DNA of 64,000 nt from Dehalococcoidia bacterium (GCA_965203195.1 OZ241860.1:1986334-2050333), one strand, 5' to 3'. Shown: positions 5,620 to 63,601, counted from the stretch's first letter. Notes: a model not told the origin generated them from the sequence alone. Numbers and translations are program-made.

Positions 5620-5973
5620 ATGAGTTCTTTTGAGATTGAAATCGGCGTCGCGGGCGGCAACGGGGATGCCCCGGTACGCCTGTCCGCTCTGGTGGACACC
5701 GGGGCGGCGCATTCGATGCTGCCGGCGTCTTTGCTGGCGCGGCTGGGTGTCAAACCGAGCCGGCAGCGCACCTTTACGGTAGCCGACGGCCGCGCCGTGA
5801 ACTACGACCTCGGCCGCGCTATGTTTTTCATCGGACCGGAAGTGGCGACTTGCCCGGTTATTTTCGGACCGGAGGGGCGCTACCTGCTGGGCGCGACGAC
5901 TTTGGGGAGCCTCGACCTGGCGGTTGACCCGGTGAACCGGCGGCTGATGCCGGTGCAGACGCTATACCTCTGA
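5620..5973 (+). CDS. retropepsin-like (clan AA) aspartic protease, single-domain
   Basis: 117 aa with LVDTGAAHSMLP (D-T-G active-site signature) and a later LLGATTL flap-like segment. GAGGGG lies upstream of the ATG. Confidence 0.7.
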   Translation: MSSFEIEIGVAGGNGDAPVRLSALVDTGAAHSMLPASLLARLGVKPSRQRTFTVADGRAVNYDLGRAMFFIGPEVATCPVIFGPEGRYLLGATTLGSLDLAVDPVNRRLMPVQTLYL

Positions 5974-7665: not shown

Positions 7666-9063
7666 TTATACCATACGCGACTGCACCGGCTGCCCTGTAT
7701 TGGGGTCAAGCATCGTCGGGATGCGGGGCATCCGATTGTCAAAGTACTCGGCGATTGACCAGAGCTGCACACGAGGATAGCTCTGGGCGCCTACGGTTAT
7801 CTGCCCTTTGCCGGCGGTTTCGCGCCAGGCATTGCTGCGCGGCCCGAATTGATCCAAAGTGACAAATATGCCCATCGCCGCGTTGTCCCGTTCCATAGCG
7901 GTCATAAATGCGCGCACTTGGTCGATGGTAGGGCGCCCGCCTTTGACCTGGGCCAGCACCAGAGGGGAAGCGTAGTCGCTGGGCTTGACCTGCATTCGGC
8001 CGCGTCCGTCGATGCCGCCGTCGCCGACCTTGGTTTCATTGGGGGCCAGCCCCGGTATTCGGGTTACGGCCCAAGCCTCAAAGTCCTGCGGATTGGCCTG
8101 CGCCAGACGCCGCGCGCCAGCCATATCTTGTGGTATGCCATCTACGCTGGCCTGTATTCCCAGCGGGGCCAGCCGATTTTGGGTAATGTCAACAGCGTGC
8201 GGCGATAGATCAATGCCGATCCACTGCCGATTGAGGGCGGCGGCGGCAACGATGGTAGTACCCCCGCCGCAGAAAGGATCCAACACCAAATCGCCCTCGT
8301 TGGACGAAGCGCTGATGATGCGTTTGAGCAGAGCGGCCGGCTTTTGCGTGGGGTAGCCGATGCGCTCCGGAGACCAAGTTTGCAGGGAATTGATGTCCGT
8401 CCACCAGTCCGGCATCCTGGCCCCGCGTTCCAAATCGCGCGGCTGGTTGTCAATGGAGACCCCGCCGCGGCTTTCAACCAATGCGGTTGAGGCGTCGGAA
8501 TACGGAACATACAGCCGATTAAATGTAACTGCCGCGGATTTGGTGTAGCGCAGGATGACATCGTGCTTGCGGGCAAAGTCATTGGCGGGAACGCCGCCGC
8601 CGCGATAGCACCAGATGATTTCGTTGCGAAAGCGGCTGGCCCCAAACACGCAGTCCAGCAGCATTTTGATGTAGTGACTGGCGGTGGGGTCGCAGTGCAA
8701 ATAGATAGTGGCCGTCTTTTTCATCAGCCGCCGCATTTCGGGCAAGCGATCCGCAAGGTAGCTCAGATAGGCCAGCATACCGGAATCGCCCAAAAACGCG
8801 CGCAGCCCGGTAATCACCCGATGCGCCGGGTGCGCGATGGCGTTGGCGATGCGCCGGGTGCGTTCTATTGCCGCCGCGTCCCATTTCCAGGTGTCCTGGA
8901 AAGCGCGGACCTGCGCCGGAACGCCGTTGCCTTCGCCAAAGAGGATGTTGTAGTTGGCGTTGCTGTTGAACGGCGGGTCAAGGTAGATGAGGTCAACGCT
9001 GCTGTCCGGCCACTGCCGCATCCAGTCCAGGCAGTCGCCGTAATACAGGGTTTGGGGGTTCAT
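7666..9063 (-). CDS. beta-class N4/N6 DNA methyltransferase fused to a C-terminal Mrr-like restriction-endonuclease domain
   Basis: Motif IV LIYLDPPFNSNANY precedes motif I VLDPFCGGGTTIVAA. The C-terminus GDGGIDGRGRMQV...LVLAQVKGGRPT...GIFVT resembles the Mrr-type PD-(D/E)XK core. ATG 9063 has GGAGAA upstream. The track start at 9192 reads through a repeat element. Confidence 0.8.
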   Translation of the reverse strand: MNPQTLYYGDCLDWMRQWPDSSVDLIYLDPPFNSNANYNILFGEGNGVPAQVRAFQDTWKWDAAAIERTRRIANAIAHPAHRVITGLRAFLGDSGMLAYLSYLADRLPEMRRLMKKTATIYLHCDPTASHYIKMLLDCVFGASRFRNEIIWCYRGGGVPANDFARKHDVILRYTKSAAVTFNRLYVPYSDASTALVESRGGVSIDNQPRDLERGARMPDWWTDINSLQTWSPERIGYPTQKPAALLKRIISASSNEGDLVLDPFCGGGTTIVAAAALNRQWIGIDLSPHAVDITQNRLAPLGIQASVDGIPQDMAGARRLAQANPQDFEAWAVTRIPGLAPNETKVGDGGIDGRGRMQVKPSDYASPLVLAQVKGGRPTIDQVRAFMTAMERDNAAMGIFVTLDQFGPRSNAWRETAGKGQITVGAQSYPRVQLWSIAEYFDNRMPRIPTMLDPNTGQPVQSRMV

Positions 9064-27841: not shown

Positions 27842-28756
27842 ATGGCTACCCTGTCGGTGCGCGCTCCGGCCACTACTGCCAACCTCGGCCCCGGCTACGA
27901 TTGCCTGGGGATGGCCCTTGACCTGTGGAACCGCCTCACCGTAAGCACGGAGACGGCGGCGCCGGCGGTGCGCGTGCGCGGCGAAGGCGCCGGCGAACTG
28001 GCGGCGGATACGGAAAACCTGACCTACCGGGCGATGCGGTTTCTGTATGACGAAGCCGGCGTGCCGATGCCCCCGCTGGCACTGGAATGCGACAACGCCA
28101 TACCCCTCAGCCGGGGCCTGGGCAGCAGCGCGGCGGCCATCGCCGGCGGGCTGGTCGCCGCCAACGCCCTGCTGGACCATCCCTTTACGCCCGGCGAAAT
28201 GCTGGAAATGGCGGCCACTATTGAGGGGCATCCCGACAATGTGGCGGCGGCGCTGCACGGCGGCCTGCAACTGGTGGTGACGGACGAGGGCAGCCGCATC
28301 TACACCGCGCCCATCGGCGTCCCCGATGATTTGCAGGCGGCGCTGTTCATCCCGGAGCGGCGCATCGCTACGGCGGACGCCCGCCGGGTTCTGCCGGCGC
28401 AGGTGGGGATGGCCGACGCCGTGCATAATATGAGCCGCGCCGCCCTGCTGGTGGCGGGGATGATGGGCAACCGCCCGGAGTATTTGGGGATTGCCACGCA
28501 GGATCGGCTGCATCAGCCCTACCGCCAGGCGCTGTTCCCGGCGATGAAGGTTATTTTCGCCGCCGCGCGCAACGCCGGGGCGCTGGGCGTGTTTCTGTCC
28601 GGGAGCGGCAGCGTCATCCTGGCGTTGACGCGGGAACGGACGATGACGGTGGCCTACGAGATGTTTGACGCCGCGCGGACGGCCGGCGTGGAGGGCCGGG
28701 TGACCATCACCCAACCGGCGGCGCAGGGGGCGCACCTGATGCCGGCGGCGGAATAA
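27842..28756 (+). CDS. thrB: homoserine kinase
   Basis: MATLSVRAPATTANLGPGYDCLGMALD and PLSRGLGSSAAAIAGG (GHMP kinase motif). TATACT lies about 55 nt upstream. Confidence 0.9.
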   Translation: MATLSVRAPATTANLGPGYDCLGMALDLWNRLTVSTETAAPAVRVRGEGAGELAADTENLTYRAMRFLYDEAGVPMPPLALECDNAIPLSRGLGSSAAAIAGGLVAANALLDHPFTPGEMLEMAATIEGHPDNVAAALHGGLQLVVTDEGSRIYTAPIGVPDDLQAALFIPERRIATADARRVLPAQVGMADAVHNMSRAALLVAGMMGNRPEYLGIATQDRLHQPYRQALFPAMKVIFAAARNAGALGVFLSGSGSVILALTRERTMTVAYEMFDAARTAGVEGRVTITQPAAQGAHLMPAAE

Positions 28757-28776
28757 AACCTGGCCGGGTCTGCTGA

Positions 28777-30345
28777 TTACGCGGTGGCCGGCGGCGCTTT
28801 CGGCCGGGCCAGTTCGGCCAGATAGTCCGTGGCCCACTGGCGGGCGATGCGGAGTTCAATGCGCCGGTCAATCGCCCGGTCGCCGTACCAGCGACCGTTG
28901 CGCCGGTTATCCTGGCGCAGGGCGGTCAGCGTCATCGTGTTGGATTTGCGCTTGTTGCAGGGGCCGCACAGCGGGGCGCGGTTCTCCAGCTCGTTGCTGC
29001 CGCCTTCGGAATCGGGCAGAATGTGGTCCAGCTCCAGAAACTCGGCGGTGGGCGGCTCAAAGCCGCAGCCCCAGCAGCGGACGCCCCACTGCTCAACCAG
29101 GATGTCCAGCATTTCCTGGCGGCGCATTGTAGCCGGCCGGCGGCGGCGGTACACCGGCCCCAGATGCGGGGCGCTTTCGCCATCATCGGTGCGCGCGGGC
29201 GGGATGTAGCGGATTTCACAGGCGGCTTGCAGCTGGGGCATCAGGCTCTGCTGCTGCGCCTTGAAATCGTCAACATTGATGCCCAGACCGAGCAGACGGT
29301 TGGCGACGTGATAGGCGGCATCCTCGCGGCGGTCGATGCCCACCCAGCGGCGGCCCAGATTCTGGGCGGCAATCGGCGTGGTGGCACACCCGCAAAATGG
29401 GTCCAGCACAATATCACCAGGGTTTGAGCCCGCCGCGACAATGCGTTCATACAGGGCCAGCGGCTTTTGGTCGGGCGAGCCGGTGCGCTCGCGACGCGGG
29501 GCGTGCATCATATCGGCAATGTCCGTCCAGGTATCGCCAAGCATTACATTTTCGATGACATCATTGCCACGAGTCTCCAAGTCGTATCTGATTCTGATGT
29601 TACCGCTTGCCGTGCGGTGAATCCTACTTTCCGATTCCAGACGCGCAACGCTGGAATCGGTATAGTTCCCGCGTGGGGCCGTTTTAAAAGCCTGGCCGTT
29701 ATTGTCGATGCGGATGTGCGACGGGAGGGATGACTTCGGATGGCGGATTTCCCCGCTTACCCGGTTGTACCGGGCTTCGGGCGACTTGCCGTAAACGTAG
29801 ATAATTTCGTGGTTACGCGGGAACTGGCGGGATGTAGCCTTTCCTCCGCGGCCGCTTTTCCCATAAACCCAAATTACCTCGTTCCTGAAATTCCGCTTGC
29901 CAAAGATGGCGTCCAATACCATGCGGATATAGGCATTGGCGCTGTGGTCGCAGTGCAGGTAGATGCTGCCCGTCGGTTTCAGCACCCGGTGCATTTCCAG
30001 CAGGCGGACGCCCAGGAAGCAGAGGAACGCCGCCGTGTCGTCGTCCTGCGTCATCCGGGTGGATTCGATGACCTGGAACAGGGCCCGGTTTTCGTCCTGG
30101 ATTTGGTCCAGCCAGATGCGGTGGACGGGTTGCCAGAGCCACTGGTCAGGGCGGTTCAGCATAGTCGGGTCGTCGGCCCAGCGCCAGGCGTCCTCGTACT
30201 GGCTGGCCGAGGCGGCGCGGTTGCGCTTTTTGTTGAAAGGCGGGTCGGTGGCGATTAGGTCCACGGTTTCGCTGTTCATCCCGCGCAGGACATCCAGGTT
30301 GTCCATATTGTAGAGGACGCGGTCGGGGAAGTTCTGCTGGGCCAT
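28777..30345 (-). CDS. beta-class N4/N6 DNA methyltransferase fused to a C-terminal HNH endonuclease domain (copy 1)
   Basis: Motif IV LIATDPPFNKKRN, motif I VLDPFCGCATTPIAA, C-terminal CWGCGF...LELDHILPDSEGGSNELENRAPLCGPCNKRK (HNH). ATG 30345 has AGGAG upstream. Confidence 0.85.
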   Translation of the reverse strand: MAQQNFPDRVLYNMDNLDVLRGMNSETVDLIATDPPFNKKRNRAASASQYEDAWRWADDPTMLNRPDQWLWQPVHRIWLDQIQDENRALFQVIESTRMTQDDDTAAFLCFLGVRLLEMHRVLKPTGSIYLHCDHSANAYIRMVLDAIFGKRNFRNEVIWVYGKSGRGGKATSRQFPRNHEIIYVYGKSPEARYNRVSGEIRHPKSSLPSHIRIDNNGQAFKTAPRGNYTDSSVARLESESRIHRTASGNIRIRYDLETRGNDVIENVMLGDTWTDIADMMHAPRRERTGSPDQKPLALYERIVAAGSNPGDIVLDPFCGCATTPIAAQNLGRRWVGIDRREDAAYHVANRLLGLGINVDDFKAQQQSLMPQLQAACEIRYIPPARTDDGESAPHLGPVYRRRRPATMRRQEMLDILVEQWGVRCWGCGFEPPTAEFLELDHILPDSEGGSNELENRAPLCGPCNKRKSNTMTLTALRQDNRRNGRWYGDRAIDRRIELRIARQWATDYLAELARPKAPPATA

Positions 30346-30416
30346 TGTGGGGTACTCCTGTCCTGCGACCATACTGTTGCCGGTATAATGAGGATTTCCG
30401 CAGCACTGTCCGGTTA

Positions 30417-30446
30417 GATATATTGTATTTACAGCGTCCGTGTCAA
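30417..30446 (-). promoter_or_regulatory. near-consensus sigma70-type promoter for MTase-HNH copy 1
   Basis: Minus strand reads TTGACA (30446-30441), N18, TATATC (30422-30417). It is an AT-rich island in GC-rich DNA, about 70 nt upstream of ATG 30345. Confidence 0.45.
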
Positions 30447-30455
30447 GTTGGGGCA

Positions 30456-30537
30456 GTTCCCGGCGATGAAGGTTATTTTTGCCGCCGCGCGCAACGCCGG
30501 GGCGCAGGGGGCGCACCTGATGCCGGCGGCGGAATAA
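30456..30537 (+). pseudogene. remnant copy of the thrB 3' end (internal 141-bp deletion)
   Basis: 30456-30505 matches thrB 28534-28583. 30506-30537 matches thrB 28725-28756, including the TAA stop. The junction falls in a shared ggcgc microhomology. Confidence 0.85.
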
Positions 30538-30589
30538 AGCGGGGCCGGGCCGCGCCGGGCCGCTTGCCCGCATTGAATCGCCTTGCCGT

Positions 30590-32053
30590 CTATTCCCGCA
30601 ATTCCGCCGGCACCGGAAAGTCTTTGATAAATGACTTGGCGTATGACATCCAGCCGCCCTGGTAGGGTCGTCCGGTCTGCCGGATGTAAAAGTCCATATC
30701 ATCCGAATTCAGCGCCGACAGCAGACGCTTCCGGTCGACGCCGGGCTTGGGCTTGACGCAGTAGCCGGAATAAAAGGTCGCATCCGCGTTGGGGCAAACC
30801 TGAAAGTTGGGGCGCCGGTTCATGCCGGAGGTCAAAATCTTGTCGCCAAACCCGGAGACGATGGAAACCTGCCGGCCGAAAGCGTACCAGCGCGCCGGGT
30901 CAAATCGCCCCTTGTCCCGGTTGAGCAGCCGTTCCCGGTGGGAAATCAGCCACCGGTAGGCCACGGGAGCATTGGCGGCAATATCGCCTTCGGGCAGCAG
31001 CCGGCCGTGGTCATCATACGGGAAAATGGCGACGCGGCGCACCGGATCCTGCCCGTCGCGCATCACCGACGCTTTGACCACGGGGCGCAGGAGCCGGGGT
31101 TCCAGCCCGATGGCGCGGGCCTCGCCCGCCGGCAGGATGAATACCCGGTCGGCCAGTGTCTGTATGCCTACATGGATGTCCGCAACCGCCGCCAGGCGCG
31201 GCCCCCGGCGGGCCAGTTCCTGCATCCGCCGCCGTTCCGCCGCCGTGGCCGCCAACCAGGTATGCGCGGGATTGCCGGCGTCCAACGCGATTGCCCCGGC
31301 GTCATAGAAACGCGCGCCGTCATACTTTGATACCGGGATGTCTGCCGGCGCGCCGTCTTTTCGTATGATGGTGACGGCGGTGTAGGTGGTAACATCGTCA
31401 AAGACTTGGTGTTCGCCGAAGTCAATAATTCGTTCCACCCGGTGGGATTGCGCCAGCAACTGGCGCAGTGCCGCCCCGGAGGCCGACCGCAGCCAGCTGG
31501 AGGGGGCAATGTAGCCCAGCAAACCGCCGCTGCCGAGCAGGGCCAATCCCAGCTCGTAAAACACCAGGAACAAATCAGTGGCGCCGCGCGTAACGCGCCA
31601 GCGGCCGGCGATGCGATGGCGGCCTGACTGCTCCAGATGCTGCACCCGCACATAAGGCGGGTTGCCGACGATATGCGTAAATCGGCCCCAATCGGCGGCG
31701 AAAGCGTCCCGGTCAAAAGCATTTCGTACTTGCAGGTTCCATTGGACCCGCGCGCCGGGATGCCATTGAGCCAGAGTGTCATCCAGGCGGGAGCGGCAGC
31801 GGGCGATGGCGGCGGCGTCTATGTCGTAGCCGGCCATACGGCCCAGAGCGGCCAGGGCATCGGCGCGGCCCAGGCGCGTCAGCAGCCGGCGGGCCACGGC
31901 GACCAGAAAGGCTCCTTCGCCGCAGGCCGGGTCGCAGATGGATGCCGCGCCCAGCCCGTCGGCGCCGGCCGGCAGCGCATTGTCTAGTACCAGAGCCACG
32001 ATGGACGCCGGGGTATAGACTACGCCTTGCCGCTTGCGGGTGGAAATACTCAT
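30590..32053 (-). CDS. gamma-class N6-adenine DNA methyltransferase (Eco57I/TaqI-like), M subunit of type II R-M pair 1
   Basis: VVYTPASIV, motif I ICDPACGEGAFLVA, motif IV IVGNPPYVRV. The ATG overlaps the upstream R gene stop (ATGA). Confidence 0.85.
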   Translation of the reverse strand: MSISTRKRQGVVYTPASIVALVLDNALPAGADGLGAASICDPACGEGAFLVAVARRLLTRLGRADALAALGRMAGYDIDAAAIARCRSRLDDTLAQWHPGARVQWNLQVRNAFDRDAFAADWGRFTHIVGNPPYVRVQHLEQSGRHRIAGRWRVTRGATDLFLVFYELGLALLGSGGLLGYIAPSSWLRSASGAALRQLLAQSHRVERIIDFGEHQVFDDVTTYTAVTIIRKDGAPADIPVSKYDGARFYDAGAIALDAGNPAHTWLAATAAERRRMQELARRGPRLAAVADIHVGIQTLADRVFILPAGEARAIGLEPRLLRPVVKASVMRDGQDPVRRVAIFPYDDHGRLLPEGDIAANAPVAYRWLISHRERLLNRDKGRFDPARWYAFGRQVSIVSGFGDKILTSGMNRRPNFQVCPNADATFYSGYCVKPKPGVDRKRLLSALNSDDMDFYIRQTGRPYQGGWMSYAKSFIKDFPVPAELRE

Positions 32054-32739
32054 GGCGACAGGCGTCTCAATTCAATGCGTCGGGCCATACGCGGGAAAAA
32101 CAGCGGGACGCGCAGCGCATTGTCCAGCGCGGCGCAGCCTTCGGCGCTGATGCCCATTGCGGCGGGGTTGGCAATGCCGATTATGGCGTTGGCGTCGGTA
32201 TCCAGCTCAGCAATGCCGATTGCCATTTCCTGCGGGGCGTGAATATGCTCGTGGTCGGCGCGGAGCCGGGCGTAGCGCTGGATGTCATTATCTCTGATGG
32301 CTTCCCGGCGCACAATCTGCCCGGCCCGGTTTTTGTAGGGTATAGGGTTGGTTACACAGAAAAGGTTGCCGTACACAATGTTGCGGCGACGCAGGTTGGC
32401 GGTTTCGCCAATCTGCTGCTCCAGGTAGTTGACGGAGTTTTGCCAGTAATTGGAGATGACAAACTTGACGCTGATTACCCCCAGTTCCTCGCCATCCCGC
32501 GCGACAAGCACATCAACATTTTTGTCGTAATACATACCGACAACGCCGGCTTCCTGCGCGCTGACCGGAGATTGCCCGGTGAAAGTGTACCCGTCTCCCA
32601 GCTCGCGACGCAACTCATCCTGCACCCAACCGTGCAGGACTTTGGTCTTTTCATTGGAACGAACGCCGTGCCGGAGTACCATCCGGTAGGATTCCTGCAT
32701 CGCCGCCAGGAAGCGTTGCTCTACACTGTCGGTTGGCAT
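32050..32739 (-). CDS. putative type II restriction endonuclease (R subunit of pair 1)
   Basis: 229 aa with a PD-(D/E)XK-like KNVDVLVARDGEELGVISVKFVISNY. 4-nt overlap with the methylase gene. GC visibly lower than in the neighbouring genes. Confidence 0.6.
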   Translation of the reverse strand: MPTDSVEQRFLAAMQESYRMVLRHGVRSNEKTKVLHGWVQDELRRELGDGYTFTGQSPVSAQEAGVVGMYYDKNVDVLVARDGEELGVISVKFVISNYWQNSVNYLEQQIGETANLRRRNIVYGNLFCVTNPIPYKNRAGQIVRREAIRDNDIQRYARLRADHEHIHAPQEMAIGIAELDTDANAIIGIANPAAMGISAEGCAALDNALRVPLFFPRMARRIELRRLSP

Positions 32740-33045
32740 CTGTTCACCTCAATTTCAATAGCAAGTTACGCCAATGGGCATCTTGGTCAAAGCGTTGCCC
32801 AACCCGGCCATTGTTGGAACGATGGTACCGCAGAGCGTGGGTTGGGCGCAAGCGCTGCTGTACCGGGTTAGGATTATTCAAAACTCAGAAAGGATCGAAA
32901 CGCGCTACGAATTCCGTCACTTTCGTGAGCAATTTCCGCAATCGCCCGCGCATCGTTCCCACGCCAGATCACCAGCCATGTCCCCAATCGACTCTGGGGG
33001 ATTATAGCACCGCAGGCCCTCCAGAACGAACCCCACGAACGCGCG

Positions 33046-33078
33046 CCAAAGAAAACCGGCCGCTCGGCAAGCGGCCGG
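33046..33078 (-). terminator. intrinsic-terminator-like hairpin (orphan)
   Basis: Minus strand shows a 9-bp perfect stem ccggccgct/agcggccgg with a 5-nt loop, followed by ttttctttgg. It lies just outside the IS end and has no intact upstream gene. Confidence 0.45.
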
Positions 33079-33168
33079 CCCGGAACGCTATCGGCAGACA
33101 TCCAACAAACAGGACGCCAGCCTGCTTGGCCGACTATCCCACGCTACGCTCCGTCGCCTTTTTCGCCA

Positions 33169-33978
33169 GGCCGTGTTGACATTTCAGCGTAGCCAGATGA
33201 GGGCCGCCGCAAAATGCCAAAACCCCAAGTAGCGCCGGCTCAATTTCTCAAACCGGGTGAACACCCGCCGGTAGCGCTTCACTTTGCCAATAAAGCACTC
33301 CACCAAATGACGCTCGCCGTACAGGTCCGGATCATACACCACCACTACCTTCCGGTTGGAACGCCCCGGTATCACCGCCGTCATCCCCAACTCCGCAATC
33401 CACTCCCGCAGCCACTGGGCATCGTATCCCTTGTCCGCAATCACATACTCGCCGGCGTAGCCGGACAGCAACGCTTCGGCCTGGGTAATATCGTTCTCCT
33501 GGCCTCCCGTCAGGATGAACCGCAAAGGATTGCCCAGCCCGTCCACTGTGATGTGTACTTTGGTACTGAACCCGCCCCGACTGCGCCCTAACGCTTGAGC
33601 GTCTTGACCGCCCCCTTTTTCGGGGCGCCGGCGGCGTCGGGATGAGCGCGGACGATGGTACTGTCAATGATGAGGTATTCGGTGTCCGGGTCATCGGCCA
33701 AGTGTTGGTGGAGCGCCGTCCAGATGCCACGGTCGCACCAGTTGGCGTAGCGTCGGTAGATGGAGTTCCATTTGCCGTATTCCGCAGGCAGCATTCGCCA
33801 GGGGGCGCCGGAGCGGGCAATCCAAAGTACGGCGGTAACGAAGCGTCGGCAATCGGTTTCACAGCCGACGTAGAGGTCGGAGCGGCTGCGGAGGAAGGCG
33901 AGGATTTTGTCCCATTGGTAGGATGTCAGTTCCAAGTTTGCCATGCCGCAATGATAACACCAAAATGTCAACACGACC
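33169..33978 (-). mobile_element. IS5-family (IS427/IS1031-like) insertion sequence, copy 1
   Basis: About 17-bp terminal inverted repeats: GGCCGTGTTGACATTT at the left end and AAAATGTCAACACGACC at the right end. The element is about 810 bp and has a two-frame transposase. Confidence 0.85.
33184..33944 (-). CDS. IS5-family DDE transposase, orfA-orfB joined by a -1 frameshift
   Basis: orfA is MANLELTSYQWDKIL...GAPKKG. The slippery AAAAAG lies at 33620-33615. The -1 frame continues GGGQDAQALGRSRGGFSTKVHITVDGLGNPL...ADKGYD...ERHLVECFIGKVKRYRRVFTRFEK. Confidence 0.85.
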
Positions 33979-33980
33979 TA

Positions 33981-34790
33981 GGCCGTGTTGACATTTCAGC
34001 GTAGCCAGATGAGGGCCGCCGCAAAATGCCAAAACCCCAAGTAGCGCCGGCTCAATTTCTCAAACCGGGTGAACACCCGCCGGTAGCGCTTCACCTTGCC
34101 AATAAAGCACTCCACCAAATGACGCTCGCCGTACAGGTCCGGGTCATACACCACCACTACCTTCCGGTTGGAACGGCCCGGTATCACCGCCGTCATCCCC
34201 AACTCCGCAATCCACTCCCGCAGCCACTGGGCATCGTACCCTTTGTCCGCAATCACATACTCGCCGACGTAGCCGGACAGCAGCGCTTCGGCCTGGGTAA
34301 TGTCGTTCTCCTGGCCTCCCGTCAGGATGAACCGCAAAGGATTGCCCAGCCCGTCCACTGTGATGTGCACTTTGGTACTGAACCCGCCCCGACTGCGCCC
34401 TAACGCTTGAGCGTCTTGACCGCCCCCTTTTTAGGGGCGCCGGCGGCGTCAGGATGGGCGCGGACGATGGTGCTGTCAATGATGAGGTATTCGGTGTCCG
34501 GGTCATCGGCCAAGTGTTGGTGGAGCGCCGTCCAGATGCCGCGGTCGCGCCAGTTGGCGTAGCGTCGGTAGATGGAGTTCCATTTGCCGTATTCCGCAGG
34601 CAGCATTCGCCAGGGGGCGCCGGAGCGGGCAATCCAAAGTACGGCGGTAACGAAACGGCGGCAATCGGTTTCACAGCCGACGTAGAGGTCGGAGCGGCTG
34701 CGGAGGAAAGTGAGGATTTTGTCCCATTGGTAGGATGTCAGTTCCAAGTTTGCCATGCCGCAATGATAACACCAAAATGTCAACACGGCC
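33981..34790 (-). mobile_element. IS5-family insertion sequence, copy 2 (head-to-tail with copy 1, separated by TA)
   Basis: Same inverted repeats (perfect GGCCGTGTTGACATTT / AAAATGTCAACACGGCC). It is flanked by TA on both sides. It is near-identical to copy 1, with scattered substitutions. Confidence 0.85.
33996..34756 (-). CDS. IS5-family DDE transposase, orfA-orfB joined by a -1 frameshift
   Basis: Same architecture as copy 1, with the slippery AAAAAG at 34432-34427. Confidence 0.85.
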
Positions 34791-34850
34791 TAGGGTAGGG
34801 CAAAGTCCGGCGGCAGTACGGACGAACCGCAAAGGAGGGCAACCGGCCTT

Positions 34851-36357: not shown

Positions 36358-37749
36358 TCAGGCCGCAATCCCCATTTCCCGCAGGCGGGCCAGCAGGTAT
36401 TCCTGCGATCGGACGCCCTTGACGCGGTTGCAGTGGCCGCAGAGGAGTTGCAGGTTTTCAATGTGGTCGGCGCCGCCGGCGGACTGGGGGATGATGTGGT
36501 CAACCTCCATATGCCGGAACTCAAAGGCGGAGCGGCAGCCCCGGCAGCGGCCCTCCTGCTGCCCAAAGAGGATGTGCCGGTTCTGGCGGTAGGGGCGGGG
36601 CGCGTCAATGTCAGTGCGGCGGGGTATGTCGGCGCGGGCGGTTACCAGGCGGTTGTGAAAGAGGTTGCCCATTGACTGCCGCAAGCGCATATTGACCAGC
36701 TCCACGGCCTTGGGCGAGATGTCAATGCCAATCCAGCGGCGGCCCAGCTGCTCGGCGGCCACGCAGGCGGTGGCGCAGCCGCAGAACGGGTCCAGCACTA
36801 CATCGCCGGGGTTGGACGAGGCTTTGATGATGCGTTCCAGCAGGGCCAGCGGCTTTTGCGTGGGATAGCCGATGCGCTCTTTGGCTTGGGATGCAATGGG
36901 CGATATGTCCGTCCAAATATCCTGCAACGGCACGCCGGGCATTTCATCAAGATAACGCTTATATTGAGGCACACCTCCCGGCCTTCTCTGGACTATCCGG
37001 CCCTCGTCAATCAGTTCCTGCATTCGCGCTTCGCTGTAACGCCAGTACCGGGTCACTCCCATCATTTCGTAATGCGGGTTGCCTTTGGAGGCACCGCCGG
37101 GGGCGGTCAGATCGCTCAGCCTGTAACGGCGGTTGGTTCCCGGCTCTGTGTACCTGTAGAACTTGGCTACATACTCCGGGTTATAGGCCGTATAGACCGG
37201 GTTCCAGTTCCATTGGTCCGACTTGGTGTAAAAAAGCAGGATGTCGTGAATGCGGCCATGCTGCCGTCGGCCTTGTCGGGTATCGCTATGGGCGTTAGTG
37301 CGCCGCCAGGTAATTTCGCTGCGGAAATTGCCGGCGCCGTAGATGCTGTCCAGCAGCAGTTTGAGGTAATGGCCGGCGGTGGGGTCGCAGTGCAGGTAGA
37401 TGGAGCCGGTGTCTTTCAGCACGCGGCGCATTTCCAGCAGTCGGACGGCCATCATACAGAGGTAGGATTGCATTCCCTTGCCGTGGGTGAGGCCGGCGGC
37501 GGCCAGGGCCTGGTAGAGGGCGGGCTGTTGGTCGGCGACTAGGCCCATCCAGGCGGTGTCCAGGTCGGACAGGGTCCAGGTGTCCTTGAAGGCGGCGCCG
37601 GCGGCGGCGCTGCCCACGGGGGCGGCGTAGTTGCGGTTGGAGTTGAAGGGCGGGTCGAGGTAGATGAGGTCAACCGAGGCGGAGTTGAGGCCGCGCAGGA
37701 TGTCCAGGTTGTCGCCCGTCCAGATGGTTTTGTCGGCGAAGTTGGTCAT
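36358..37749 (-). CDS. beta-class N4/N6 DNA methyltransferase fused to a C-terminal HNH endonuclease domain (copy 2)
   Basis: Motif IV LIYLDPPFNSNRNY, motif I VLDPFCGCATACVAA, C-terminal CRGCRSAFEFRHMEVDHIIPQSAGGADHIENLQLLCGHCNRVKG. Confidence 0.85.
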   Translation of the reverse strand: MTNFADKTIWTGDNLDILRGLNSASVDLIYLDPPFNSNRNYAAPVGSAAAGAAFKDTWTLSDLDTAWMGLVADQQPALYQALAAAGLTHGKGMQSYLCMMAVRLLEMRRVLKDTGSIYLHCDPTAGHYLKLLLDSIYGAGNFRSEITWRRTNAHSDTRQGRRQHGRIHDILLFYTKSDQWNWNPVYTAYNPEYVAKFYRYTEPGTNRRYRLSDLTAPGGASKGNPHYEMMGVTRYWRYSEARMQELIDEGRIVQRRPGGVPQYKRYLDEMPGVPLQDIWTDISPIASQAKERIGYPTQKPLALLERIIKASSNPGDVVLDPFCGCATACVAAEQLGRRWIGIDISPKAVELVNMRLRQSMGNLFHNRLVTARADIPRRTDIDAPRPYRQNRHILFGQQEGRCRGCRSAFEFRHMEVDHIIPQSAGGADHIENLQLLCGHCNRVKGVRSQEYLLARLREMGIAA

Positions 37750-37764
37750 AGTGATTGCCTGGCT

Positions 37765-38138
37765 TCACCCGTTGCGGGCCAGGCCCGGCGCGGCCAGAGG
37801 TTCCATTATGTCCAGGAATCGCTCCAAATCGAGCAGGTCGCCGGCCACGTTCGCGGCATTATCCCAGTTCTCATAAAAATTTGCCTCGAGGCTGATGGCA
37901 ACCTGGAACAGGACCGGATGTCGTCGTCGCCGGTTTCGGAGGCCAGCCGGGAGATGACATTATAGAGGGCGGCATGGTCGTGATGCGCCCAACCGCGTCG
38001 CACGGCCACGGATTTGACGATTTGGGCGGCGGCGGCCCAGCCCTTTTGGGATGCCTGGCGGGTGTCGCCGGCGGCGAGTTCCTCACGCGCCTGCGTCAGC
38101 AGGTGCCGGCTGGCGGTCTGATAAGTTTGCGCTACCAT
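37765..38138 (-). pseudogene. HEPN-like (PaREP1-type) paralogue 1, frameshifted
   Basis: Same N-terminus as paralogues 2-4 (MVAQTYQTASRHLL...). A 1-nt deletion within 37903-37920 relative to paralogue 4 shifts the frame. The shifted frame restores LFQVAISLEANFYENWDNAANVAGDLLDLERFLDIMEPLAAP. Confidence 0.7.
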
Positions 38139-38148
38139 AGATTGCCTC

Positions 38149-38505
38149 CTACGGCGTGGCCAGCGGTTCCAGCTGGTCCAGGAACTGTGCGATGTCGTCA
38201 AGACTGTCGGCCACGTTCGCGGCGTTATTCCAGTTTTCGTGGAAGTTCACCTGGAGGTTGCCGGCAACGTCGAACAGCCGCCGTATGTCCTCGTCTCCGG
38301 TTTCGTCCGCCAGTCTCCGGATGACGCGATACAGGGCGGCATGGTCGTGATGCGCCCAGCCGCGCGTTTCGGCTACGGATTTGACGATTTGGGCGGCGGC
38401 GGCCCAGCCCTTTTCGGATGCCTGGCGGGTATCGCCAGCGGCGAGTTCCTCATGCGCCTGCGCCAGCAGGTGGCGGCTGGCGGTCTGGTAGGTTTGGGCT
38501 ACCAT
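38149..38505 (-). CDS. HEPN-like (PaREP1-type) paralogue 2
   Basis: 118 aa: MVAQTYQTASRHLLAQAHEELAAGDTRQASEKGWAAAAQIVKSVAETRGWAHHDHAALYRVIRRL.... GGAGGC lies upstream. Confidence 0.75.
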   Translation of the reverse strand: MVAQTYQTASRHLLAQAHEELAAGDTRQASEKGWAAAAQIVKSVAETRGWAHHDHAALYRVIRRLADETGDEDIRRLFDVAGNLQVNFHENWNNAANVADSLDDIAQFLDQLEPLATP

Positions 38506-38515
38506 AGATTGCCTC

Positions 38516-38872
38516 CTACGGCGCGGCCAGCGGTTCCAGCCGGTCCACAAACCGCTCAATTCGGGACAGGGCGCCGGCTACGTTTTCGGCGTTGTCCCAA
38601 TTTTCGTAAAAGTTGGTGTGGAGGGCGTTGGCGATATGGAACAGGTCGCGGATGTCGCCATCGCCGGTTTCGTTGGTCAGGCGCCTGACGACGCGATACA
38701 GGGCGGCATGGCTACCGTGTTCCCATCCGCGTCGCGCGGCTACGGATTTGACGATTTGGGCGGCGGCGCCCCAGCCTTTTTCGGAGGCTTGGCGGGTGTC
38801 GCCGGCGGCGAGTTCCTCATGCGCCTGCGCCAGCAAATGCCGGCTGGCGGTCTGATAGGTTTGCGCTACCAT
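38516..38872 (-). CDS. HEPN-like (PaREP1-type) paralogue 3
   Basis: 118 aa, same pattern (…VAARRGWEHGSHAALYRVVRRL…). GGAGGC lies upstream, with a 10-nt spacer to the next gene. Confidence 0.75.
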   Translation of the reverse strand: MVAQTYQTASRHLLAQAHEELAAGDTRQASEKGWGAAAQIVKSVAARRGWEHGSHAALYRVVRRLTNETGDGDIRDLFHIANALHTNFYENWDNAENVAGALSRIERFVDRLEPLAAP

Positions 38873-38882
38873 AGATTGCCTC

Positions 38883-39239
38883 CTACGGCGTAGCCAGCGG
38901 TTCCAGCTTATCCAGGAACTGTGCGATGTCATCCAGGTCGCCGTCCACGCTCACGCCGGGTATCCAGTTTTCGTAGAAATTTGCCTCGAGGCTGATGGCA
39001 ACGTTGAACAGCCGGCGTATATCGTCGTCGCCGGTTTCAGCGACCAGCCTGGAGATGACGATAAAGAGGGCGGCGTGGTCGTGATGCGCCCAACCGCGCG
39101 TTTCGGCTACGGATTTGACGATTTGGGCGGCGGCGGCCCAGCCCTTATGGGATGCCTGGCGGGTGTCGCCGAGATACAAATCCGCGCGGGCTTGCGCCAG
39201 CAGGTGACGGCTGTCGGCTGGGCAGGTTGGCATTGCCAT
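38883..39239 (-). CDS. HEPN-like (PaREP1-type) paralogue 4
   Basis: 118 aa with a divergent N-terminus (MAMPTCPADSRHLLAQARADLYLGDTRQASHKGW...). The remainder is conserved. Confidence 0.75.
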   Translation of the reverse strand: MAMPTCPADSRHLLAQARADLYLGDTRQASHKGWAAAAQIVKSVAETRGWAHHDHAALFIVISRLVAETGDDDIRRLFNVAISLEANFYENWIPGVSVDGDLDDIAQFLDKLEPLATP

Positions 39240-39350
39240 AGGTCAATCCATGCTGGCAGCGGTACGGACGGCGTTGCCATCCGGTCTGCGGGGCGTACGC
39301 AGAGCGTGGTTGGGCCGGTTCAAGGTTAGCCTGTTTCAGGGAAGTTCCGG

Positions 39351-49231: not shown

Positions 49232-50815
<1,584 letters not shown>

Positions 50816-51014
50816 CCGCCGCCTGGTCGCAAAAGCAGGGATGGGGGTAGGGGGTTGCTCCCCTGCCCCCTGTGCCGCCGGCCGGCGCGGCCCGTTTGAC
50901 GGGATAGGCGCCAAGTGGTAAGTTAGGCGCACAGGAAATTTAAGGCGTCCCCCTCCTCCCGGTTGGGGACGCTGCTGTCGACTATCGCCGCAGCAACGGC
51001 ATGGAGGCGAGGTT

Positions 51015-51176
51015 ATGACGACGCCGGAATCCGACCGTCAGGCAACTCCCCAGCCGGAGCAGATTAACTGGTGGATGACGCCGACGCAGCGACGCCATAT
51101 CAAACGCCTGGAGCGCAAGGCGGATGCCGCTATGGAAAATCTGTACCGGCTGCTCCCGGAATTGCCCCGCAGCTAG
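51015..51176 (+). CDS. 53-aa hypothetical ORF between the protease paralogues
   Basis: GGAGG lies 7 nt upstream of the ATG. Product is MTTPESDRQATPQPEQINWWMTPTQRRHIKRLERKADAAMENLYRLLPELPRS. Confidence 0.35.
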   Translation: MTTPESDRQATPQPEQINWWMTPTQRRHIKRLERKADAAMENLYRLLPELPRS

Positions 51177-51255
51177 TCCGCGCGAGCAATGCCAGGGACT
51201 GTCGCCGGCTGCTGCCCTCGCCACCCCATCGCAACCTTTGCTGGAACCACGCTGA

Positions 51256-52914
<1,659 letters not shown>

Positions 52915-54705: not shown

Positions 54706-54731
54706 AGCCGCCGTGGGTGGAGGGAATTGCG

Positions 54732-55295
54732 ATGACGACGACAATGACGACGCCCAAGCTACTGACCGCCGCCGACCTGCTCCGCCTGCACAGCGAAGGC
54801 GTGCGCGGCGAACTAATCCAGGGGGTACTGCACCAAACTATGCCAGCCGGATTCAGGCATGGCAAGATAATAATGCTCCTGGGCGCCCGGCTGGTATCGC
54901 ACGTGGAGCCGGCCGGTCTGGGCCACGTGTTCGGCTCCGACACCGGCGTCCTGCTGGAACGCAACCCCGACACCGTGCGGGAACCGGACATAGCCTATGT
55001 TTCCGCGGCCCGCCTCCCCCTAGATGCCGAAATCAGCGGCTACTGCCCGGTCGTCCCCGACCTGGTAGTGGAGATAGTGTCCCCAACCGACGACGAACGG
55101 GAAGTGGCTAACAAGGCCGCAATGTGGCTGCATTACGGCGCCCGCATGGTCCTGGTGATAAACCCGGCATCCCGCACGATACAGATGCGCCGGCCCGGCG
55201 CGCCGACTGCTATCCTCACCATCCACGATACGCTGGACGGCGGGGATGTGCTGCCGGGTTTCACCTGCCCGGTGCGGGATATTCTGGAGCGTTAG
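54732..55295 (+). CDS. Uma2-family endonuclease, tandem paralogue 1
   Basis: ...REPDIAYVS...VPDLVVEIVSPTDD...KAAMWLHYGARMVLVINP. Confidence 0.8.
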   Translation: MTTTMTTPKLLTAADLLRLHSEGVRGELIQGVLHQTMPAGFRHGKIIMLLGARLVSHVEPAGLGHVFGSDTGVLLERNPDTVREPDIAYVSAARLPLDAEISGYCPVVPDLVVEIVSPTDDEREVANKAAMWLHYGARMVLVINPASRTIQMRRPGAPTAILTIHDTLDGGDVLPGFTCPVRDILER

Positions 55296-55371
55296 GCCAG
55301 TCAGCCATCTCCGGCGCCATCTCCACCGGCGCCCCGCCGGGCCTGGCGGATCTGCCCACGAGGGAATTGCG

Positions 55372-55935
55372 ATGACGACGACAATGACAACGCCCAAACT
55401 GCTGACCGCCGCCGACCTGCTCCGCCTGCACAGCAAAGGCGTGCGCGGCGAACTAATCCGGGGAGCGTTGCGAGAAACTATGCCAGCCGGACTGAAACAC
55501 GGCGAGATAGCCGCCGCCCTGATGTCCCTGCTCTGGATACACGTCCACCCTGCCCGACTGGGCCACGTGTTCGGCTCCGACACCGGCGTCCTGCTGGAGC
55601 GCAACCCCGACACCGTGCGGGAACCGGATGTAGCCTATGTTTCCGCGGCCCGCCTGCCCCTGGACGCCGACATCAGCGGTTACTGCCCCGTCGTCCCCGA
55701 CCTGGTAGTGGAAATAGTTTCCCCAACCGACGACGAACGGGAAGTGGCTAACAAGGCCGCAATGTGGCTGCATTACGGCGCCCGCATGGTGCTGGTGATA
55801 AACCCGGAATCCCGCACTATACAGGTGCGCCGGCCCGGCGCGCCGGCAGTTATCCTGACCGTCCACGATACGCTGGACGGCGGGGATGTGCTGCCGGGTT
55901 TCACCTGCCCGGTGCGGGATATTCTGGAGCGTTAG
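55372..55935 (+). CDS. Uma2-family endonuclease, tandem paralogue 2
   Basis: 640-bp tandem duplicate of 54732-55295. Both copies are preceded by the same agggaattgcgATG leader. Confidence 0.8.
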   Translation: MTTTMTTPKLLTAADLLRLHSKGVRGELIRGALRETMPAGLKHGEIAAALMSLLWIHVHPARLGHVFGSDTGVLLERNPDTVREPDVAYVSAARLPLDADISGYCPVVPDLVVEIVSPTDDEREVANKAAMWLHYGARMVLVINPESRTIQVRRPGAPAVILTVHDTLDGGDVLPGFTCPVRDILER

Positions 55936-55940
55936 GCCGG

Positions 55941-56405
55941 TCAGTCGGCCACTTCCAGCACCATCTCCACTTCCACCGGCGCCCCGCGCGGCAGGGCGGC
56001 CATGCCCACGGCGGAACGGGCGTGGCGTCCGTTTTCGCCGTACAACTCCACCAGCAGGTCGGAAGCGCCGTTGCCCACCGCCGGCTGCTGGTCAAACTCC
56101 GGGTCGCTGTTGACCATCACCAGCAGCTTCACCACGCGCCGCACCCGGTCCAGGTCGCCGATGATGCTTTTGGCGGAGGAAAGGCAGTTGACGGCGCACT
56201 GGCGGGCCGCCTCATAGCCCTGCTCAACGCTCACCTCCCGCCCCAGCTTGCCGCTGGCGACCATCGCGCCGTCGGGACGCCGGGGCAGGTTGCCGGATAC
56301 GAACAGCAGATTGCCGGCGCGCACCGCGGGAACAAAATTGCCCAGAGAGGGGTTGGGTTCGGTTACTTCCAGGCCCATTGCGGCCAGCTTGCTTTCAATT
56401 TCCAT
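55941..56405 (-). CDS. RidA/YjgF-family protein
   Basis: ...AGNLLFVSGNLP...RHARSAVGMAALPRGAPVEVEMVLEV. Confidence 0.8.
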   Translation of the reverse strand: MEIESKLAAMGLEVTEPNPSLGNFVPAVRAGNLLFVSGNLPRRPDGAMVASGKLGREVSVEQGYEAARQCAVNCLSSAKSIIGDLDRVRRVVKLLVMVNSDPEFDQQPAVGNGASDLLVELYGENGRHARSAVGMAALPRGAPVEVEMVLEVAD

Positions 56406-61700: not shown

Positions 61701-61835
61701 TCAATCCGGTGCCGCGCCCGGACCGGAAAGGCGGCCCCATTCAACCCCCCGCCGGCGCAGCCGTTCCGCAATGACCCGCTGCGCCGCCGGCGAGTCGTCC
61801 ATCCCAATGAAGCGGCGCCCCAGCCGGGCAAAGTA
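61701..61835 (-). pseudogene. 3'-terminal remnant of a beta-class DNA methyltransferase gene
   Basis: Translates as ...ARLGRRFIGMDDSPAAQRVIAERLRRRGVEW... 61738-61829 is about 90% identical to 62559-62650, the 3' end of the intact methylase gene. Confidence 0.7.
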
Positions 61836-62531
61836 CTACGGGTTGTTGGCAGCAATATCCGTGAGGATAGGTTGCAGGGCATTAACGCTGGCTACATAGC
61901 TACGCGGGTTTTGCATACGAACCAGCGCCTGCAATTGCGACAACCGCGCCGCGTTGTAATACGGGCCATCAACCAGGACGAAAAGGGCGACATCATTGTT
62001 GATGCGTTGCAAAAAATTTCGCAGCAGCGCCTGAATTTCGTTGAACTGATTGTCCTGATTTCCGCCGCTCTCCCGCGTGTATTTTTGAGCAGCATAGCAG
62101 GTCACTCCACCGGTCCGCCACTGAAAATCAATGGACTTGGACGGACGCTGTGCGCCAGCCAACTGCGCCCCGGTAACTATTTGGCCGTCCCTGTTGACAT
62201 AGCAAGCATTTTGGCCGCTGGATGGCAACTTGCGAAATTCCGCAACGAACGCCAATTTCTCAACATAATCGGCGGCCGCTTTCTCGTGTACGTTTTGACG
62301 GCGCGCCTCTCGCGCCAGAACGGCTGCCAACGGGCCGTTGGGGTTGGCATCTAGATCGCGCCAGAAATCGGCTTCCGGGATGTCAAATTGACCGGCGAAA
62401 TGCAGGATCCGCGTCCGCAATCGTGCGGAGCGTTGGGCAATTTCATCAGCCATCTCAGCCCGATTAGCGAGATTCTGCTGATGCTCTATCGCTTCAAAAT
62501 CCAGTGGTTGCGGTTGCTGTGGTTCTATCAT
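61836..62531 (-). CDS. putative type II restriction endonuclease (R subunit of pair 2)
   Basis: 231 aa with SKSIDFQW...CYAAQKYTRESGGNQDNQFNE (D...QxK-like). The gene is visibly AT-richer. Its ATG lies 13 nt after the methylase stop. Confidence 0.55.
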   Translation of the reverse strand: MIEPQQPQPLDFEAIEHQQNLANRAEMADEIAQRSARLRTRILHFAGQFDIPEADFWRDLDANPNGPLAAVLAREARRQNVHEKAAADYVEKLAFVAEFRKLPSSGQNACYVNRDGQIVTGAQLAGAQRPSKSIDFQWRTGGVTCYAAQKYTRESGGNQDNQFNEIQALLRNFLQRINNDVALFVLVDGPYYNAARLSQLQALVRMQNPRSYVASVNALQPILTDIAANNP

Positions 62532-63542: not shown

Positions 63543-63601
63543 CGCGTCTCTGCTCGCCCCGGCGTCTGTGATAACTCCAGCGTCCATAATAGCCCAGGTG
63601 T

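Follow-up and report, generated by a model that had tools for sequence, protein, structure and literature searches.

We examined the region immediately downstream of thrB, the homoserine kinase gene, in a 64,000-nucleotide stretch of the genome of a Dehalococcoidia bacterium (GCA_965203195.1, OZ241860.1:1986334-2050333), referred to here as the window, with all positions counted from its first letter. Convergent to thrB lies a gene in which a DNA methyltransferase (MTase) is fused to an HNH domain. This MTase-HNH gene, which with its leader is called the cassette below, is bracketed by the intact end of thrB on the left and by a truncated second copy of that end on the right, followed by a further MTase gene and a candidate endonuclease gene, orf229. 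The features of the locus are given in the following lines, in which, as throughout, comparator loci carry handles beginning with ‘L’.

27842-28756, plus strand: thrB (homoserine kinase), intact, 304 aa (TIGR00191, E = 9e-82, residues 4-299; GHMP_kinases_N, GHMP_kinases_C)
28534-28768, plus strand: left, complete copy of the duplicated unit, comprising the last 223 nt of thrB and about 12 nt past its stop codon (repeat search, direct count)
28757-28795, no strand assigned: conserved left border of the variable region, made up of the thrB post-stop spacer and the last 19 nt of the convergent gene (blastn)
28777-30345, minus strand: MTase-HNH fusion gene, 522 aa (PF01555 N6_N4_Mtase, E = 7e-38; PF01844 HNH, E = 3e-9)
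29490-29898, minus strand: target-recognition-domain (TRD) segment of the MTase, approximately aa 150-285 (G+C 52-58%)
30346-30449, minus strand: 5′ leader with a promoter-like AT-rich stretch, common to L001 and L083 and absent from L002
30450-30464, no strand assigned: recombination joint, with GGGGCA from the cobN-side flank as in L001, then the 9-bp GTTCCCGGC at 30456-30464 (alignment)
30456-30557, plus strand: thrB 3′ remnant, a pseudogene fragment made up of 82 nt of coding sequence, from which 141 bp are deleted internally at GGCGC (30501-30505), and some 20 nt of post-stop sequence of the thrB type
30590-32053, minus strand: gamma-class N6-adenine DNA methyltransferase, 487 aa (Eco57I / N6_Mtase / TaqI_C)
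32050-32739, minus strand: orf229, candidate Type II restriction endonuclease with a PD-(D/E)XK-like fold (predicted structure, weak fold matches)

A repeat search of the window showed that the thrB 3′ end, 28534-28768, reappears at 30456-30549 in the form of two repeat pairs, 28528-28587 against 30450-30509 (93% identity, offset 1922) and 28720-28768 against 30501-30549 (94%, offset 1781), with offsets that differ by 141. By direct count, the thrB-derived segment 28534-28583 matches 30456-30505 at 49 of 50 bases, with a single C>T, and 28720-28756 matches 30501-30537 at 37 of 37, the TAA included; compared in all, the two thrB copies are 86/87 identical. Missing from the second copy are the 141 nt at 28584-28724, which have GGCGC at both edges. 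An initial annotation of this DNA had placed these segments correctly, and both its 141-bp deletion at a GGCGC microhomology and its equation of 30506-30537 with 28725-28756, TAA stop included, are borne out, the latter falling within the 37-base match. Its statement that 30456-30505 equals 28534-28583 is off by the one substitution, and it did not include the similarity that runs approximately 12-20 nt beyond the stop codon. The MTase-HNH gene is flanked by repeats longer than 30 bp, consisting of a 50-bp and a 37-49-bp segment of an original unit of about 235 bp, and the thrB end is single-copy in L002, L169, L170 and the 80 GTDB loci described below.

The duplicated thrB end is real, neither a chance match nor an assembly artefact, because an independent assembly has the same structure. 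L083 (ENA ERZ23495640), a short-read scaffold from a different sample and a different assembler, is colinear with window positions 28715-33170 at 97.2% identity and holds in one contig the cassette between the thrB end and the remnant with its identical deletion junction, as well as the MTase gene and orf229. Both copies of the second repeat segment are present in L083, and its remnant has the structure seen in the window, with 2 extra single-nucleotide polymorphisms (SNPs); the tandem arrangement of the window is also found in L084. It could be argued that the assembly collapsed or wrongly joined a repeat, or fused co-occurring strains into a chimera, as the metagenome sample includes multiple conspecific strains that differ in allele at this position and short-read contigs do break at the repeat (the ends of L083 and L084). 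However, with the entire structure recovered in a single contig from another sample and assembler, an assembly duplication, raised in the initial annotation as a possible refutation, is excluded, and we give artefacts of this kind a vanishingly small chance.

The insert between the thrB copies is 1.7 kb long and contains a single gene, with MTase and HNH domains only. This agrees with the earlier description of the convergent MTase-HNH gene (28777-30345, PF01555 and PF01844) as the only gene between the copies. The reported lack of an integrase or transposase likewise holds between the repeats, yet tandem IS5-family insertion sequence (IS) copies are found 2.6 kb to the right. In the case of the near-consensus promoter proposed for the gene, the string is present, the reverse complement of 30417-30446 reading TTGACA-N18-TATATC with the –35 hexamer at 30441-30446 and the –10 hexamer at 30417-30422, but, owing to the C at the end of the –10 hexamer, it was not picked up by a consensus promoter scan. 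In the post-stop regions, which were checked for a terminator or other structure, folding was no better than that of shuffled sequences.

Comparison with conspecific strains shows what else can occupy the site after thrB. Four conspecific loci are approximately 97-98% identical to the window in the genes upstream of and including thrB, the left flank being 97-98% identical among strains over more than 10 kb, and the thrB protein of the window is 98% identical to that of L002 and L169. In L002 an MTase-HNH gene with another TRD lies directly after thrB, with no repeat, and beyond it are an aspartic-protease-like open reading frame (ORF) and then the cobN/cobalt-chelatase cluster. L169, L170 and L171 instead carry a gene for a 1080-aa Type IIG-like methylase/restriction protein right after thrB, with neither MTase-HNH nor repeat. 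L001 contains the cassette sequence 28789-30472 at 95.9% identity, with a right flank that is the cobN flank of L002 and, on its 3′ side, a CRISPR array (a cluster of regularly interspaced short palindromic repeats). The search for the cassette beside other genes, suggested in the initial annotation, therefore had a divided outcome in L001, in which the left neighbour is a different one, the CRISPR array, but the right flank is that of L002. The array itself spans L001 11672-21520 with at least 160 repeats of the unit GTTCCCCCGCACACGCGGGGATAGACC at a 61-bp period and abuts the MTase-HNH 3′ end; the ORFs called within it are spurious, with no Pfam hits, and an array of this type is absent from the window, L002, L169, L083 and L170.

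More distant relatives place this variability in context. Relatives of thrB belong to a Dehalococcoidia lineage (Chloroflexota) represented largely by sponge-associated or marine metagenome-assembled genomes. A scan of GTDB with thrB gave 80 loci at 64-79% identity, usable as an outgroup only, in which synteny upstream of thrB is conserved. An aspartate kinase gene follows thrB in 79 of these 80 species representatives, mostly immediately and in the same direction (in L003, a locus checked with Pfam, it is followed in turn by a glycosyltransferase family 2 (GT2) gene), and no MTase-HNH gene was found within 6 kb of thrB in any of the 80. In contrast, no aspartate kinase gene is present anywhere in the 64-kb window, and the thrB 3′ site is therefore a lineage-specific break occupied by restriction-modification (R-M) genes. 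The thrB stop codon is the exact point of chromosomal rearrangement in this species, and R-M genes fill the break. A thrB scan of Joint Genome Institute (JGI) metagenomes gave a best match of 74% identity and no conspecific loci, and no exact-match protein records were found for the MTase-HNH or thrB proteins of the window, or for a near-identical thrB, P0241.

The left edge of the variable region can be placed precisely. By blastn, homology of the window with L002, L169 and L170 stops at 28795, and homology with L001 begins at 28789. As this border lies 19 nt inside the convergent gene, MTase-HNH and the Type IIG-like gene share their last six codons. This was seen directly in L169, in which the otherwise unrelated Type IIG-like gene has the last six codons and stop in common with MTase-HNH, TTACGCGGTGGCCGGCGGC on the plus strand. 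Equivalents of the border are window 28757-28795, L169 10916-10954 and L002 11575-11619. A second kind of variation lies within the MTase-HNH gene, in which the TRD segment of the window/L001 allele cannot be aligned with that of the L002 allele (L002 10448-10880), with sequences on both sides approximately 94% identical. The initial annotation had called for an empty site among relatives, with thrB followed directly by the sequence after the remnant. No genome with this arrangement was found, relatives holding either R-M genes or aspartate kinase at this position. Strains that lack the cassette are not empty sites, because another R-M gene occupies the same place. Judged from these sequence comparisons, the site is one of R-M allelic substitution between conserved flanks, together with recognition-domain swapping, rather than one of presence or absence of an element.

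The joint at the right end of the cassette is where the parental sequences can be read. There the window carries a piece of cobN-side flank, GGGGCAGTTCCCGGC, that is native to L001 and L002, and it passes from this flank into thrB sequence within the 9-mer GTTCCCGGC, which is common to the cobN-side flank and to thrB at 28534-28542; the expectation for this 9-mer is 0.8 occurrences on each strand of 64 kb. The window reads GTCAAGTTGGGGCA, GTTCCCGGC and GATGAAGG in succession, the right part also being given as GATGAAGGTTATTTT. At the corresponding position L001 reads GTCAAGTTGGGGCAGTTCCCGGCAAAGACGGCCGG, i.e. GTCAAGTTGGGGCA GTTCCCGGC AAAGACGGCCGGTTGCGCC, and thrB reads GGCGCTGTTCCCGGCGATGAAGG, i.e. 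CAGGCGCT GTTCCCGGC GATGAAGGTTATTTT. The L001 stretch aligns with the L002 cobN-side flank GGCAGTCGCCCGCAAGGACGGCCGG (GGCAGTCGCCCGCAAGGACGGCCGGTTGCGCC) at 17 of 21 positions, the alignment continuing for approximately 100 bp, and because of this homology it is native to the cobN flank and not derived from thrB. The window thus changes parent in a 9-bp microhomology, which argues for illegitimate recombination and not for site-specific insertion or homing. Beyond the remnant stop codon, the sequence TAAAGCGGGGCCGGGCCG is nearer to TAAAGCGCGGCCGGCCGGGCCG of L002 than to TAAAACCTGGCCGGG of the resident thrB. The stop codon of the convergent 487-aa MTase gene follows about 50 nt past that of the remnant, a layout that matches thrB/MTase-HNH and thrB/Type IIG.

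Integrative elements classically insert at the 3′ end of a gene and supply a replacement end, and it is conceivable that an integrase or transposase acting in trans used an att site in the thrB 3′ end, with the nearby IS5-family copies as a candidate source. However, neither the unit nor its surroundings contain an integrase, the repeat, at about 235 bp, is a piece of a gene rather than a short core site, no inverted repeats or short target-site duplications were found at the cassette ends, and at the right end lies the flank that natively neighbours the cassette in L001 and L002. Integrase-mediated elements at gene 3′ ends also differ from this locus in that here no recombinase lies between or beside the repeats and the repeat, a gene fragment, is bounded on its inner side by a microhomology to a flank unrelated to it. 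We consider integration of this kind very improbable.

Taken with the allelic diversity of the site, the joint points to an origin in which two alternative R-M alleles of one hot spot were probably stacked by microhomology-mediated (homology-facilitated illegitimate) recombination. The first allele would consist of thrB, the convergent MTase-HNH gene, the AT-rich leader and the start of the cobN-side flank, as seen in L001 and L002. For the second we infer thrB followed by the convergent Type II MTase gene and orf229 in the same orientation as the MTase, and the remnant with its R-M pair looks like such an allele, the fourth of the site, with nothing of its thrB left but the end. One illegitimate crossover at GTTCCCGGC would have joined the cobN-side flank of the first allele to thrB codons ~231-233 of the second, and the other crossover was presumably homologous and located in shared flank. 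The net product would resemble an insertion with a ‘target duplication’ of about 235 bp that leaves thrB intact. The downstream thrB copy, a decaying pseudogene, would then have lost its 141 bp by slippage or deletion between the GGCGC pentamers, a loss that predates the split of the window and L083. That the deletion is in frame has no visible meaning, because the remnant lacks the first 231 thrB codons. As an effect of the deletion, loop-out of the cassette would have 50 + 37 bp of homology to use, down from about 235 bp. Recombination through the second segment would restore a single R-M allele with intact thrB, and recombination through the first would leave thrB short of 47 codons.

Stacking by a crossover of this kind can be read in two mirror versions. 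In the first, the incoming DNA would have been the cassette with a thrB end, the upstream region of 97-98% identity serving as anchor; in the second, it would have been the R-M pair with a hitch-hiking thrB end, anchored on the right. The replacement end envisaged in the initial annotation corresponds to one of these two versions, the one in which the remnant is the original thrB end; as readings of the event the two are equally possible, and related strains without the cassette do exist (L169, L170, L171). Sliding-window SNP analysis of thrB and its upstream region in the window, L002, L169 and L170 showed a mosaic at approximately 97-98% identity with no breakpoint signal for the donor side. 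The version with an incoming cassette is mildly favoured, since a fragment of cobN flank is found in a genome whose right flank is not cobN.

Several points weigh against the stacking of two alleles. The second allele alone, that is thrB followed by the sequence from 30538 onward, was found in none of the collections searched, and the right flank of the window matches comparators only in short pieces (87 + 86 bp in L169 and 58 bp in L002). Since IS copies interrupt this flank, the right-hand crossover cannot be located. On the other side, the thrB side of L001 is hidden by the CRISPR array, which fills the 10-kb flank. The argument from microhomology is drawn from a single junction, and no DNA-uptake route, by natural transformation or otherwise, is known for this uncultured host, which is represented by metagenomes only.

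The same joint could also have been used within one chromosome, where unequal exchange or template switching at the 9-bp microhomology would first have duplicated in tandem a 1.92-kb unit of thrB 3′ end and MTase-HNH cassette, and homologous recombination in the flanks would later have put the Type II R-M pair in place of the second cassette copy. The thrB copies are 86/87 identical, as would be expected within one genome, and allelic replacement is evidently frequent at the site. This course of events nevertheless needs two events rather than one, no trace of a second cassette copy is left, and the remnant post-stop sequence differs from that of the resident thrB. Because that sequence resembles L002, import from another allele fits better than a local copy, and we regard intrachromosomal duplication as rather unlikely.

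The initial annotation had proposed homing-like or recombination-driven mobility of an element inserted into the thrB 3′ end that supplied a replacement gene end. The geometry of that proposal stands, one nuclease/methylase gene being bracketed and thrB intact. What does not stand is a discrete element with ends of its own, because L002 has the cassette directly after thrB without duplication. As a self-mobile homing-like unit, the MTase-HNH cassette would have its HNH nuclease cut the cassette-free thrB end, with repair installing the cassette and the replacement end. The HNH domain does appear intact (DH...N...N with two CxxC pairs), the cassette of L001 is 95.9% identical although its 3′ neighbour is a CRISPR array and not thrB, the family is very widespread in variable contexts, and double-strand breakage has been proposed as a common property behind insertions of R-M genes (Furuta et al.; PMC2853133). 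Against this, homing is a precise insertion without target duplication, which is present here, and the right joint consists of foreign flank sequence and a microhomology, with no defined element end. No flanking direct repeats were found around MTase-HNH at five other loci (L001, L002 and L166-L168, the last three being more distant homologues in unrelated contexts), so that the repeat is not a property of the family. Homologues in other genera are not beside thrB and occur in variable contexts, strains lacking the cassette hold another R-M gene in place of an empty target, and an IMG/VR scan with MTase-HNH found no relatives in viral contigs; a phage origin is, for the last reason, also unsupported. 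The locus thus lends no support to homing-like mobility, and we consider the self-mobile reading doubtful in the extreme, though not quite as improbable as integration in trans. By analogy with what Furuta et al. propose for R-M genes generally, the HNH nuclease could have supplied the triggering break. A stronger version, in which MTase-HNH promotes its own acquisition by breaking chromosomes or incoming alleles without the cognate methylation and microhomology-assisted repair installs the cassette together with a spare gene end, is in our estimate unlikely.

Homology-facilitated illegitimate recombination has reportedly been shown experimentally in naturally transformable bacteria, Acinetobacter and pneumococcus, in work from 2002 by de Vries and Wackernagel and by Prudhomme and co-workers. 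The present locus is similar in that the joint lies at a short G+C-rich microhomology, the other end is anchored in homology (presumed here) and foreign DNA is gained beside the anchor. It differs from the demonstrated cases in that the host is uncultured and the process is deduced from a single joint.

‘Insertion with long target duplication’ is an established pattern for R-M genes (Nobusato et al. 2000, Gene 259:99; Furuta, Abe & Kobayashi 2010, PMC2853133). Furuta et al. (2010) screened for inserts with homologues of both R and M (PMC2853133), and the long-target-duplication criteria are direct repeats >30 bp around the R-M or MTase gene and an insert <20 kb without transposase, integrase or prophage. 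The published cases include orphan MTases and the HNH gene mcrA, the repeats often span a stop codon, and the mechanism was left open save for double-strand breakage as a proposed common property (PMC2853133). Much like these cases, the thrB locus has an R-M-type gene in a 1.7-kb insert, no mobility gene, direct repeats >30 bp that are single-copy in relatives, a repeat that spans the stop codon and an intact neighbour gene. As differences, no clean empty site was found among the relatives, which carry other R-M alleles, and one repeat copy has an internal deletion of 141 bp. A single polypeptide here holds MTase and predicted HNH nuclease domains. Two further differences are that the parental sequence of one joint is available, with its 9-bp microhomology, and that the host is an uncultured member of the Dehalococcoidia, a group absent from the published examples.

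Other known systems share part of this picture. As in R-M allelic substitution at E. coli hsd, the immigration control region (Sibley & Raleigh 2004; PMC2853133), unrelated R-M genes occupy the same position between conserved flanks, the alleles at the thrB site being MTase-HNH, a Type IIG-like gene or a Type II M+R pair. The window differs in having two alleles in tandem instead of one replacing the other, and in a left border set 19 nt into the convergent gene from its 3′ end, so that different enzymes have six codons in common. The TRD variation recalls TRD exchange, or domain movement (Furuta and Kobayashi; PMC2853133), in that sides approximately 94% identical enclose an unalignable low-G+C TRD of about 400 bp, although here a beta-class MTase fused to HNH is concerned. 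Free-standing HNH homing endonuclease genes likewise lie beside housekeeping genes and show presence/absence polymorphism, but here a full DNA methyltransferase, its TRD swappable, carries the HNH domain as a fusion partner, a target duplication and an imprecise joint are present, and the location is not conserved across genera.

The arrangement is therefore a known kind of R-M gene rearrangement, not a new self-mobile element. Its added value is that a parental joint can be read, and what this joint suggests is that alternative alleles of a defence hot spot recombined through microhomology. Because the 9-bp microhomology can be read directly through sister strains, it is a mechanistic candidate for the unexplained long-target-duplication pattern. 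The locus offers a natural example, from sponge-associated uncultured Dehalococcoidia, of defence genes accumulating at one chromosomal hot spot. Alternative R-M alleles normally replace one another, whereas here two would have been stacked by an illegitimate crossover. It also advises caution, in that a gene bracketed by a duplicated gene end need not be a self-mobile element. Should MTase-HNH after all drive its own acquisition, this would be the first R-M long target duplication with both parental sequences visible, and a pattern unexplained for 25 years would gain a testable pathway of double-strand break and homology-facilitated illegitimate recombination.

The MTase-HNH protein has the motif order of the beta class, with DPPF (motif IV) N-terminal, the TRD central and motif I (FxGxG-like, DPFCGCATT) C-terminal. 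The beta-class N6/N4 DNA methyltransferase domain covers aa 28-345, and the HNH domain is C-terminal at aa 424-478 (nt 28912-29076; also matched by PF14279, E = 7e-9), with two CxxC pairs. The HNH beta-beta-alpha-metal sequence CWGCG...LDH...N...CGPCN is present, the DH...N...N pattern looks intact, and nuclease activity is predicted. PADLOC calls the protein MTase_II, and its sequence matches in the PDB are CcrM, M.MboIIA, M.RsrI and the Cas9 HNH domain. Approximately 7,900 homologues were found, most of them with both domains, and literature searches found no characterised MTase-HNH fusion. Among homologues P0002-P0013, TRDs are shared as a patchwork, with P0002 sharing its TRD with P0007, and P0003 with P0004 and P0006. 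The TRD comparisons suggest frequent switching of MTase-HNH specificity by recombination. Apart from the finding reported here, this large family, with thousands of members and swappable recognition domains, may merit biochemical attention.

To the right of the remnant, the 487-aa MTase is 98% identical to its copies in L083 and L084, and its start overlaps the orf229 stop by 4 nt. orf229 has no match in Pfam, NCBIfam or PADLOC, and its family comprises 436 clusters at 50% identity. The AlphaFold2 (AF2) model of orf229 has a predicted local distance difference test (pLDDT) value of 96.9. Its top fold matches in the PDB are AF1548, NucC, the R.BspD6I small subunit, EcoT38I and BstEII, all weak with template-modelling (TM) scores of 0.24-0.44, and the conserved residues are D76, K73 and E107/E112. 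On the basis of this structural model, orf229 and the 487-aa MTase look like a candidate Type II R-M pair. Two further features lie beyond.

32782-32868, no strand assigned: 5′ region shared with aspartic-protease-like ORFs of L002 and L169 (blastn, 87 bp)
33168-34794, minus strand: IS5-family tandem pair, 815 bp per copy and 97.5% identical, at the right margin of the R-M region (exact end point of contigs L083 and L084)

On the right of the alleles, the first forms a conserved upstream module, which in the window lies upstream of orf229 and in L002 and L169 precedes the aspartic-protease-like ORFs. Such clan-AA ORFs (~128 aa, PF13650), with the upstream module, recur beside methylase genes at several loci (window 32782-32868 and 5620-5970, L002 9469-9948, L169 14357-16482 and L085 9319-9714). 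The methylase gene downstream of the ORFs is MTase-HNH in L002, the Type IIG gene in L169 and an Eco57I-type MTase gene in L085. The two IS5-family copies, at 33168-33982 and 33980-34794, each consist of a DUF4096 ORF and a C-terminal transposase ORF.

The window as a whole is rich in DNA methylases. Four beta-class N6_N4 methyltransferase genes (8155-9054, 28777-30345, 36358-37749 and 62544-63587) and the gamma-class MTase gene at 30590-32053 amount to an unusually high density for 64 kb, and two of the beta-class genes, 28777-30345 and 36358-37749, are HNH-fused, their products being 35% identical. Gene-sized tandem repeat units, 77-87% identical, occur at 37786-39241, 49339-52500 and 54720-56016, with PaREP1-family ORFs among the units at ~37.8-39.2 kb, just past the second MTase-HNH gene. 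A second R-M-linked long direct repeat, with the same geometry as the thrB case, is found at 61737-61829 and 62559-62651 (~93 bp, 93.5% identical, 822 bp apart). It derives from the 3′ part of the beta-class N6_N4 MTase gene at 62544-63587 on the minus strand and brackets only a 231-aa ORF (61836-62531) with no family match, possibly a partner endonuclease, with purA just beyond.

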